From the NCBI RefSeq assembly GCF_051903065.1, contig NZ_CP178438.1: a stretch of 64,000 nt of DNA; one strand, given 5' to 3'. The position numbers and the translations under genes were made by a program. This document shows, piece after piece, positions 8,912 through 12,662 of this stretch; positions within the stretch are counted from its first letter, which is position 1, and each line of letters opens with the position of its first letter. The notes under the pieces were generated by a model, which did no database searches, was not told where the DNA came from, and saw only the letters and a program-made list of their open reading frames with translations. Source of the DNA: Escherichia coli (GTDB lineage: Bacteria; Pseudomonadota; Gammaproteobacteria; Enterobacterales; Enterobacteriaceae).

Positions 8912-9787
8912 ATGGCAGATTTAGACGATATTAAAGATGGTAAAGATTTTCGTACCGATCAACCGCAAAAAAATATCCCTTTTACCCTGAAAGGTTGCGG
9001 TGCGCTGGATTGGGGAATGCAGTCACGCTTATCGCGGATATTTAATCCGAAAACGGGTAAAACCGTGATGCTGGCTTTTGACCATGGTTATTTTCAGGGA
9101 CCGACTACCGGACTTGAACGCATTGATATAAATATCGCCCCGCTGTTTGAACATGCCGATGTATTAATGTGTACGCGCGGCATTTTGCGCAGCGTAGTTC
9201 CCCCGGCGACCAATAAGCCGGTGGTACTGCGGGCGTCAGGTGCGAACTCTATCCTGGCGGAATTAAGCAATGAAGCCGTGGCGTTATCGATGGATGACGC
9301 CGTGCGCCTGAACAGTTGCGCGGTGGCGGCGCAGGTTTATATCGGCAGCGAATATGAACATCAGTCGATCAAAAATATTATTCAGCTGGTCGATGCCGGA
9401 ATGAAAGTGGGAATGCCGACCATGGCCGTGACTGGCGTGGGCAAAGATATGGTGCGCGATCAGCGTTATTTCTCGCTCGCGACTCGAATCGCCGCTGAAA
9501 TGGGGGCGCAAATTATCAAAACCTATTATGTCGAAAAAGGTTTTGAACGGATTGTTGCCGGATGTCCGGTACCCATTGTTATTGCTGGCGGTAAAAAATT
9601 ACCGGAGCGCGAGGCGCTGGAAATGTGCTGGCAGGCTATCGATCAGGGCGCTTCTGGTGTGGATATGGGGCGTAATATTTTCCAGTCTGACCATCCGGTG
9701 GCGATGATGAAAGCCGTACAGGCGGTGGTACACCATAACGAAACGGCTGATCGGGCATATGAACTCTATCTGAGTGAAAAACAGTAA
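8912..9787 (+). CDS. lsrF: 3-hydroxy-5-phosphonooxypentane-2,4-dione thiolase (aldolase-like)
   Basis: 291-aa ORF; operon position after lsrB. Confidence 0.85.
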
Positions 9788-9809
9788 CTGCGGATTAAGG
9801 AGAAGAAAC

Positions 9810-10100
9810 ATGCACGTCACACTGGTTGAAATTAACGTTCATGAAGACAAGGTTGACGAGTTTATCGAAGTTTTTCGCCAGAACCACCTGGGCTCGGTAC
9901 AGGAAGAAGGCAATTTGCGCTTCGATGTCTTACAGGACCCGGAAGTGAATTCGCGCTTTTATATCTACGAAGCCTATAAAGATGAAGACGCAGTGGCGTT
10001 CCATAAAACCACGCCCCACTACAAAACCTGTGTCGCGAAACTGGAATCTTTAATGACCGGGCCGCGTAAAAAACGTCTGTTCAATGGGTTGATGCCGTGA
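9810..10100 (+). CDS. lsrG: Phospho-AI-2 isomerase (ABM monooxygenase-like fold)
   Basis: Start placed at [14 protein letters not shown] giving 96 aa; the 108-aa ORF from 9774 probably over-extends the N-terminus. Confidence 0.85.
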
Positions 10101-10585
10101 GGCGAATTTATCCGGTGCGCCGTAAAACCCCGTCCTTCAGGGCGGGGATATAAGGCGCGGTTTTCCACCTGACCAGGTGTTTGCTGTTGTTCAATGTATT
10201 GGCGGATGACGGATATTGGCGCACCTCCGCAGCTACTGGCAAAATAGCCAGGACTCCACAAAACGCCTTTGTAGTAATACCTGACTGCAATATCTGGTCG
10301 ATCTCGTCGCAGTAACCTACCTGATACGCTTTTGAGGCTGTTTACCAGACTGGATATCGCCAGTTTGGGAGGATAGTTAATTAACAAATGGACGTGATCT
10401 GGTTCGCCATCCATTTCAACCAGTTCAGCTTCAAAATCAGCACATACATTTGAAAAGTAAGTGCGTAGTTTTTCTGTCGCGTCATGGTCAAAAATCTGGC
10501 GTCGGTATCTGGTGACAAAGACCATGTGAACATGCTTCAGGAAAACACAATGCCTTCCACGCCGGATATCTGTTTCTTTTTTCAC
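10019..10585 (-). CDS. tnpA: IS200/IS605-family Y1 (HuH) transposase TnpA; ORF is C-terminally extended past the likely element end
   Basis: Resembles IS200 TnpA including the HVHLL motif (HuH); 188 aa versus about 150 typical, with the last ~30 codons running over the lsrG 3' end. Confidence 0.75.
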
Positions 10586-11880
10586 AGACCAAAATATAAT
10601 TTGACCTGTGAAACGACTACAGGCATTTAAATTCCAGTTAAGACCCGGTGGTCAACAGGAGCGTGAAATGAGGCGCTTCGCAGGCGCATGTCGTTTCGTT
10701 TTCAATCGTGCTCTGGCACGTCAGAATGAGAATCATGAGGCCGGTAATAAATACATCCCTTACGGGAAAATGGCTTCCTGGCTGGTTGAGTGGAAAAATG
10801 CCACTGAAACGCAATGGCTTAAAGATGCCCCGTCACAGCCATTGCAACAGTCACTGAAAGACCTTGAGTGGGCTTACAAAAACTTCTTCCAGAAGCGGGC
10901 TGCTTTTCCCCGATTCAAAAAGCGGGGACAGAATGATGCATTCCGCTACCCGCAGGGCGTTAAGCTCGATCAGGAAAACAGCCGTATTTTTCTGCCGAAA
11001 CTGGGCTGGATGCGCTACCGGAATAGCCGTCAGGTCACGGGTGTTGTGAAAAATGTCACGGTCAGCCAGTCCTGCGGTAAGTGGCACATCAGTATTCAGA
11101 CAGAAAGTGAAGTATCAACTCCGGTTCACCCTTCAGCATCAATGATCGGGCTGGATGCTGGCGTGGCTAAACTCGCCACGCTGTCAGATGGCACAGTCTT
11201 TGACCCTGTAAACAGTTTTCAGAAAAACCAGAAGAAGCTGGCGAGACTTCAGCGACAGTTCAGCCGCAAGGTCAAATTCAGCAACAACTGGCAGAAGCAG
11301 AAACGCAAAATACAGCGACTGCATTCCCGTATCGCAAATATCCGCAGGGACTACCTTCACAAAGTCACAACGACCGTCAGCAAAAACCACGCAATGATAG
11401 TCATTGAGGATTTGAAGGTCAGCAACATGTCAAAGTCAGCAGCGGGTACGGTCAGCCAGCCGGGGCGCAATGTCCGGGCAAAATCAGGTTTAAACCGTTC
11501 GATACTGGATCAGGGCTGGTATGAAATGCGTCGCCAGCTTGAGTACAAGCAGCTCTGGTGTGGCGGTCAGGTGCTTGCTGTTCCGCCAGCGTACACAAGC
11601 CAGCGTTGCGCGTGCTGTGGTCATACAGCGAAAGAAAATCGCGTGTCACAAAGTAAATTCAGATGCCAGGTATGTGGATATACAGCGAACGCCGATGTAA
11701 ACGGCGCTCGTAACATTTTAGCGGCGGGGCACGCCGTTCTTGCCTGTGGAGGGATGGTGCAGTCAGGCCGCCCGTTGAAGCAGGAACCCACCGAAATGAT
11801 TCAGGCGACAGCCTGAACGTAGCAGGATCCTCGTCATTCAGGGCGTGGAGGATGTCAACAGTTTTATCTACAATTGGGGT
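10101..11880. mobile_element. IS200/IS605-family insertion element (divergent tnpA and tnpB); boundaries approximate
   Basis: Y1/HuH TnpA and TnpB ORFs back to back; a similar 17-mer CGTCnTTCAGGGCGnGG occurs in direct orientation at 10131-10147 and 11832-11848, which I interpret as subterminal end structures. Confidence 0.7.
10608..11816 (+). CDS. tnpB: TnpB (IS605 OrfB family, RuvC-like RNA-guided nuclease)
   Basis: 402-aa ORF with RuvC-like motifs ([26 protein letters not shown]) and a CxxC...CxxC zinc finger near the C-terminus; no internal stops. Confidence 0.85.
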
Positions 11881-11903
11881 AACGCGCTGACGGGAGTAAA
11901 AAA

Positions 11904-12662
11904 ATGTCTGACTGGAACCCCTCTTTATATCTGCACTTTGCCGCTAAACGATCGCGTCCGGCGGTGGAGCTGCTTGCCAGAGTGCCGCTGGAGAATGTCG
12001 AATATGTTGCCGATCTTGGCTGTGGCCCAGGTAACAGCACCGCCCTTCTACAACAACGTTGGCCTGCTGCCAGGATAACGGGCATCGACTCATCTCCGGC
12101 GATGGTTGCCGAAGCACGCAGTGCTTTGCCGGACTGCCAGTTTGTGGAAGCAGATATCCGCAATTGGCAACCGGAACAGACACTCGATCTGATTTTTGCT
12201 AATGCCTCACTGCAATGGCTGCCCGACCACTACGAATTGTTTCCTCATCTGGTTTCGTTACTTAATCCGCAGGGCGTGCTGGCAGTACAGATGCCAGATA
12301 ACTGGCTGGAGCCGACCCATGTGCTCATGCGCGAAGTTGCCTGGGAACAAAACTACCCGGATCGCGGGCGTGAGCCGCTGGCAGGCGTTCATGCTTACTA
12401 CGATATTTTGAGCGAAGCCGGATGTAAGGTCGATATCTGGCGAACCACTTACTATCATCAGATGCCGTCGCACCAGGCGATTATCGATTGGGTGACCGCC
12501 ACTGGATTACGTCCGTGGTTACAGGATCTGACCGAGAGCGAACAGCAGCATTTTCTTACGCGCTACCATCAGATGTTGGAAGAGCAGTATCCACTGCAAG
12601 AGAACGGACAGATACTGCTGGCATTTCCGCGTCTGTTTATTGTTGCCCGGCGTACGGAGTAA
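11904..12662 (+). CDS. tam: trans-aconitate 2-methyltransferase
   Basis: 252-aa ORF with SAM-binding motif ([11 protein letters not shown]); K-12 gene order. Confidence 0.85.

Follow-up and report, generated by a model that had tools for sequence, protein, structure and literature searches.

The window, a stretch of 64,000 nt from Escherichia coli (contig NZ_CP178438.1 of assembly GCF_051903065.1), includes the end of the lsr operon of this species, in which lsrB, lsrF (8912–9787) and lsrG (9810–10100, plus strand) are followed by tam (11904–12662, plus strand). These genes were placed from the list of open reading frames (ORFs) and from RefSeq annotation, in the case of lsrG that of the 100% identical record NZ_AP045789.1, mapped onto the window. 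The interval between lsrG and tam holds two divergent ORFs, tnpA on the minus strand and tnpB on the plus strand. The tnpA frame taken from the ORF list, 188 codons with a GTG start (10585–10019), overlaps the last 82 nt of lsrG (10019–10100) in antisense; an earlier note on this DNA had described a TnpA-like ORF of this length running past the usual size over the lsrG 3' end, and the frame was recovered with exactly that extent.

Both ORFs belong to an insertion of 1747 bp (10112–11858), which was delimited by aligning its two junctions with the empty lsrG–tam site of strain EC488 and which starts 11 nt past the lsrG stop. The empty site reads ...GCGAATTTATC/AGTTTTATC..., i.e., TTTATC/AGTTTT with the slash at the insertion point, and in the window ...GCGAATTTAT is followed by the element, which runs from CCGGTGCG to GGATGTCAA, and then by CAGTTTTATC..., i.e., TTTAT(CCGG...GTCAA)CAGTTTT. 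The boundaries carry an ambiguity of 1 nt, given that the C at 10112 may equally be the C at 11859, and comparison of the empty and filled sites reveals no target duplication. The tetranucleotide TTAT (10108–10111, plus strand), identified from the empty site and by comparison of IS609 copies, lies directly 5' of the left end and occupies the same position in 9 of the 9 copies whose flank was read. On the tnpA-sense strand, every such copy ends in ...GCGCACCGG/ATAA (CACCGG/ATAA), and to the left of TTAT the copies at other sites have nothing in common. The comparison of empty and filled sites and this common end together define the span of IS609 as 10112–11858, 3' of TTAT and without duplication. 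In antisense, TTAT supplies codon 159 (ATA, Ile) and the first base of codon 160 of the tnpA frame.

The element is repeated widely in the species. In a megablast search of positions 9700–12100 against 5426 complete E. coli genomes, the internal stretch (10107/8–11858/60) was found at many other chromosomal sites with 97–98% identity, and the whole stretch was present in only 30 genomes. The lsrG–tam junction itself occurs in 31 of the 5426 genomes, from varied hosts, and in 23 of these 31 it is 100% identical over 301 nt. The other chromosomal sites include the vicinity of ydcO (in K-12), yedK, a split TetR gene, a split DUF3251 gene, a DUF1869 gene, yfeD and hslO. The tnpA gene of one copy, to which the window element is 97.9% identical, is labeled in RefSeq as “IS200/IS605-like element IS609 family transposase”. 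Members of the IS200/IS605 family transpose by a peel-and-paste mechanism, carry subterminal hairpins and insert 3' of a tetra- or pentanucleotide. Judged by its sequence, the window element belongs to IS609, a catalogued member of this family, all the family-defining features that lend themselves to testing having been found, and its insertion 3' of TTAT without duplication is the IS200/IS605 pattern. A second copy of the IS609 ends was sought in the window and none was found.

The insertion separates lsrG from tam (10101–11903), compared with a gap of only 56 bp in the empty site. The tam gene is listed as co-transcribed with the lsr operon, and tnpB is oriented like lsrG and tam, which would allow read-through from lsr to tam across IS609.

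In place of terminal inverted repeats, the element has subterminal imperfect palindromes, with the right end being the weaker of the two. The left-end palindrome (10117–10158, plus strand) starts 5 nt inside the element end and, by DNA folding, has a core stem of 10128–10135 paired with 10140–10147 around a TTCA loop; the fold of the top-strand DNA has an energy of -15.1 kcal/mol (z = -2.3). Its sequence is kept in relatives from Klebsiella, Salmonella and a metagenome, and its translation falls in the tnpA frame. The right-end region (11817–11858, plus strand), which ends in ...GTCAA and is defined by the junction with the empty site, is presumed to represent the 3' part of the TnpB guide-RNA scaffold. 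A stem is located at approximately 11800–11817, and the right-end stretch as a whole folds no better than its shuffles (z = -0.6), which makes for weaker evidence than that available for the left end. No curated guide-RNA family of Rfam matched the right end above threshold. Sub-threshold matches to HgcC (RF00062; 11749–11871, plus strand, 23.6 bits versus a gathering threshold of 50), covering the tnpB 3' end together with the right end, and to RAGATH-18 (11743–11786; 28.1 versus 44.9 bits) were not counted as evidence. The window copy also has a private deletion of 1 nt (G) at approximately 11824, between the tnpB stop (11816) and the right end, within the presumed scaffold; this G is retained in all eight other E. 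coli copies, in the plasmid copies and in the Klebsiella relative.

The tnpB gene (10608–11816, plus strand) is intact and encodes a 402-aa RNA-guided endonuclease with the Pfam domains OrfB_IS605, Cas12f1-like_TNB and HTH_OrfB_IS605 and a match to NCBIfam NF040570 (E = 7e-113; 378 bits versus a cut-off of 100). It diverges from tnpA, and the two GTG start codons (10585 for tnpA and 10608 for tnpB) are just 22 nt apart, so that the promoter of each gene must sit within the other; no sigma-70-like site was called at 10585–10608. In the relative from Salmonella enterica (contig positions 2932–3130), the left-end hairpin is split after CCCCGCCCTGAA by an insert of approximately 80 nt, after which AGGACGGGG resumes, and tnpB is cut down to an 80-aa HTH fragment.

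The tnpA frame falls into three parts. Codons 1–138 (10172–10585, minus strand) correspond to canonical TnpA, as delimited by PF01797, NF033573, solved structures and 138-aa relatives: Pfam Y1_Tnp (PF01797) matches aa 14–134 (E = 5e-40), and NCBIfam transpos_IS200 (NF033573) matches aa 8–133 with 141 bits versus a cut-off of 55. In translation, the HUH motif (HVHLL) and the RQYIEQQ tyrosine can be recognised, and the Y1 domain of the window copy is intact, with both of these retained and no internal stop. In other copies an upstream ATG (MILWS...) precedes the frame, and we considered it as a true start that would have been lost here (ATT), but the outgroups also lack this ATG and start at the GTG used in the window, so this is not a defect. 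The remaining 50 codons (139–188) form the extension. Twenty of these (139–158) are encoded by the left end of the element, namely codon 139 (10169–10171, minus strand), which DNA alignments and a per-copy codon table identify as CAG (Gln), and codons 140–158 (10112–10168, minus strand), which were followed in eight translated copies and in database proteins. The other 30 sense codons (159–188; 10022–10111, minus strand) and the TAG stop (10019–10021) lie outside the element, according to the empty site, which assigns the whole of 10019–10111 to host DNA.

Database relatives of this frame place the native stop at codon 139. The 188-aa product yielded 6970 matches. The relatives with 80–85% identity, from Salmonella, Klebsiella, Photorhabdus, Proteus, Yersinia, Xenorhabdus, Arsenophonus and others, are nearly all 138 aa long or, where a short N-terminal extension is present, 143/146 aa; the alignments span 73% of the query, and the sequences finish with ...YIEQQQTPG, ...TPS or ...TPD. 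The relatives with 94–97% identity are E. coli IS609 copies, with 82–87% query coverage and sizes of 160, 163, 168, 173, 199, 204, 213, 222, 224 and 254 aa. In agreement with these lengths, the solved TnpA structures comprise 133–159 aa, and the window TnpA aligns with them only to aa 135–140. Alignment with related TnpA proteins, as recommended in the earlier note, thus locates the stop, and at the same time corrects the size of the anomaly: that note took approximately 150 aa as typical and counted some 30 excess codons, but against the 138 aa of the subfamily the excess is 50. Homologues of approximately 188 aa with a conserved C-terminal extension, which the note had named as the observation that would speak against an anomaly, were not found, and only the 20 residues encoded by the left end are common to the IS609 copies.

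At the DNA level, the intact form of tnpA is closed by its own stop at codon 139 and gives a 138-aa product, but in the window this codon is CAG. The context ACA CCT GGT CAG GTG GAA is found in the window and in six other chromosomal copies. TAG occupies the same position in the Klebsiella plasmid elements, the Salmonella element, one chromosomal copy from an O145 strain and a Logan contig, as well as in IS609-like copies on IncI2 and P1-like plasmids, where the genes are annotated as intact with 417 nt (138 aa). The CAG allele is present at seven or more chromosomal sites and on an Escherichia albertii plasmid, and also in a relative from a JGI metagenome (79% identity; contig positions 739–2429) that has the same left-end layout and TTAT target. 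In this metagenome relative, tnpB is truncated (230 aa), and the adjacent ORFs contain group II intron reverse transcriptase/maturase domains (RVT_1, GIIM). The loss of a stop codon, one of the explanations offered in the earlier note, is thus borne out by the comparison of TAG in the relatives after aa 138 with CAG in the window.

The base at codon 139 is not strictly tied to the insertion site. At the orthologous gltX–yfeD insertion, strain 20R2R has CAG and O145 strain RM9872 has TAG (along with a frameshift); the presence of both alleles indicates that this base changes while the insertion stays in place, through point mutation or gene conversion between copies. A neighbour-joining tree of 16 copies, built to look for a single origin of CAG, has low resolution within the chromosomal clade and groups the O145 TAG copy with the CAG copy from the same site. 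We did not find the TAG-to-CAG change at codon 139 in the literature on IS609, where this element appears almost always as a hit in mobile-element screens.

The two segments of the extension behave differently. Residues 139–158 are identical or nearly so across the read-through copies of IS609, and are common to them because the left-end DNA is common. Past Arg158, the same copies diverge fully: in the translated copies and database proteins, the frame stays open for 5, 10, 12, 17, 30, 41, approximately 60, 91 and 157 codons of unrelated sequence, for total lengths of 160–315 aa. A stretch of 30 or more codons free of stops has a probability of 0.24 with uniform codons and 0.34 when estimated empirically from the six frames of the window, and the flank-encoded tail needs no explanation beyond chance. 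A frame left open by chance in the flank, which the earlier note considered alongside the lost stop, is accordingly also present, given that the frame continues past the element end and that unrelated tails of 5–157 codons occur elsewhere. The same note had placed the last 30 or so codons outside the element, and this number stands, with exactly 30 codons beyond 10112; the hairpin that it took for the boundary does not, being followed by 36 codons beyond its core.

Several lines of evidence bear on the condition of tnpA. In the record identical to the window, and likewise in each chromosomal CAG copy that was fetched, RefSeq lists the gene as a pseudogene (“incomplete; missing C-terminus”), probably because no stop is reached where the alignment to 138-aa references ends. 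Among eight chromosomal copies that were translated, tnpA is interrupted by internal stops in three and shortened by an internal deletion in one, with the 402-aa tnpB present in all eight. The deletion is found in the copy of strain ESC53083 at the yhgE–hslO site, where approximately 248 bp are lost, taking out the middle of tnpA, with tnpB (402 aa) intact. In the window copy, 18 departures from the consensus of the chromosomal copies are private; among them are M17K, L21M and G85S in TnpA and the 1-nt deletion at approximately 11824. Among the CAG copies, dN/dS is approximately 0.56 for tnpA and 0.28 for tnpB, compared with 0.10–0.14 for tnpA between the window and the TAG-bearing plasmid copies, estimates that rest on few substitutions (2–6 synonymous differences per pair); this contrast is only suggestive of relaxed constraint once the stop was lost.

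Taken together, these observations lead us to propose, with considerable confidence, that the extension is read-through after the loss of a stop, with a chance tail taken from the flank, in a tnpA that is decaying next to an intact tnpB. The tnpA of IS609 faces outward across the left end of the element and, in the wider subfamily, is closed by TAG at codon 139, approximately 57 nt inside that end. Under this scenario, a single T-to-C transition in the lineage of chromosomal E. coli IS609 would have changed TAG to CAG. With no other in-frame stop in the element, translation would then add 20 codons across the left-end hairpin and enter the DNA outside. At lsrG–tam, the frame crosses TTAT and the antisense of the lsrG 3' end and meets the first in-frame stop 30 codons on, such that the 50-residue tail would be a by-product rather than a domain. 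The element boundaries, the TAG/CAG difference, the variable tails and the lengths of the homologues are direct observations, and we infer from them that the tail has no function and that the tnpA of the window is inactive or impaired. That tnpA is decaying while tnpB stays intact is the most likely course. If the CAG allele has a single origin, IS609 kept moving after the loss of the stop; such later movement could have relied on a TnpA tolerant of its tail or on TnpA supplied in trans by plasmid TAG elements, which have an identical core left-end hairpin.

A different reading is that the stop-less tnpA still encodes a working transposase, either with a tail that is rewritten at each insertion and tolerated, or through a hairpin-ended non-stop mRNA whose protein is kept low by ribosome rescue. 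We consider this unlikely. The intact catalytic domain of the window copy fits it, as do the sharing of CAG by seven or more sites and the E. albertii plasmid copy and the recurrence of CAG in the relative with 79% identity; furthermore, the TnpA of IS608 naturally extends approximately 18 residues past the aligned core, and UUUUAC follows the hairpin on the tnpA-sense strand. Nevertheless, internal stops and deletions build up in copies with the CAG allele, dN/dS of tnpA is higher inside the CAG clade, and the plasmid copies, which combine an intact 138-aa TnpA with an identical core left-end hairpin, could have mobilised the chromosomal copies in trans. The presence of both alleles at gltX–yfeD further implies that the base flips without transposition. 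The left-end hairpin was rejected as a terminator because the consensus scan did not call it and it has a C-A mismatch on the sense strand and only four U; it is retained solely within this low-probability reading. The K-12 copy gave 0 new insertions in mutation-accumulation lines (PMC5009759), although this copy also has an internal stop. A more elaborate version appears quite unlikely: chromosomal IS609 would have colonised at least seven sites once its stop was gone, and the tail rewritten from host DNA (tolerated or throttling) or the non-stop mRNA at the hairpin would amount to site-dependent attenuation of the transposase, with TnpB keeping the copies in place.

That a TnpA subfamily natively has 188 aa, with a genuine C-terminal extension domain, is very improbable and is refuted by the variable tails: residues 139–158 are indeed conserved in the E. 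coli IS609 copies and in one metagenome relative, but this stretch coincides with the left-end DNA, whose conservation is just as high past TAG in relatives that stop at codon 139, residues from 159 onward are unrelated between sites, with totals of 160–315 aa, and no protein family model extends beyond aa 134. There is an equally slight chance that the boundary is misplaced and the entire ORF lies inside the element, a reading that the empty site refutes. The hairpin boundary of the earlier note was in fact off by 16 nt, the hairpin being subterminal and the true left end (10112) lying 16 nt outside its core (10128–10147), but this shift does not explain the extension: in the empty lsrG–tam site, 10019–10111 is contiguous with the sequence to the right of 11858, 10019–10100 is occupied by lsrG itself, and the sequence left of TTAT is not shared by copies elsewhere. 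An error of sequencing or assembly as the source of the missing stop, in favour of which nothing was found, is extremely improbable and counts as refuted, given that the junction is found in 31 complete genomes, 23 of which are 100% identical over 301 nt, and that CAG is present in independent copies from many strains.

Under the preferred reading, i.e., read-through after the loss of the stop at codon 139, the 188-aa product is neither a new TnpA variant nor a gene overlapping lsrG, and the left boundary of the element is to be set at 10112, after TTAT. The same reading explains the “missing C-terminus” flags of RefSeq on the chromosomal CAG copies and the many IS609 TnpA entries in databases that have 160–315 aa with unrelated tails. 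This copy, with its pseudogene status, is already recorded in RefSeq, and the one-base explanation is routine; the case adds one more example of tnpA decay next to an intact tnpB and has little import beyond correct annotation. Should the stop-less allele be active, it would imply that Y1 transposases tolerate arbitrary C-terminal fusions, which is a modest point.

Among known systems, the closest is E. coli IS609 itself, which has the same family assignment and the same IS605-type layout with divergent tnpA and tnpB (the K-12 copy being tnpA'/insQ by ydcO). The window element shares with chromosomal IS609 97–98% identical DNA over the full 1747–1748 bp, the same ends, TTAT, CAG at codon 139 and a 402-aa TnpB; it differs from the other chromosomal copies in its lsrG–tam site and hence in its flank-encoded tail, and from the K-12 copy in that its tnpA has no internal stop. 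The IS609-like elements on plasmids of E. coli (IncI2 pVE362 and P1-like pEC213_2) and the Klebsiella plasmid element have the same architecture, an identical core left-end hairpin and the same codon positions, with a TnpA core 80–95% identical to that of the window. In these plasmid-borne elements, however, codon 139 is still TAG and TnpA is annotated as intact with 138 aa; at the DNA level, they are 94% (E. coli plasmids) and 77% (Klebsiella) identical to the window element.

More distantly, TnpA of IS608 and ISDra2 (2A6M, 2VJV, 2XM3) belongs to the same Y1 HUH fold family and aligns to aa 6–140 of the query with E values from 1e-15 to 2e-18. In these elements, unlike the window element, tnpA is read inward, parallel to tnpB, and its stop lies well within the element, such that the loss of its stop would not reach host DNA. 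Another point of comparison is IS870 of Agrobacterium vitis, in which the stop codon of the transposase is supplied by the CTAG target. The likeness is that sequence outside the element closes the transposase frame. In IS870, however, the target provides the stop regularly, whereas the TTAT of the window (read as ATAA) contains TAA out of frame only, which leaves the position of the stop arbitrary, and the state seen in the window is derived from an ancestor with an internal stop.
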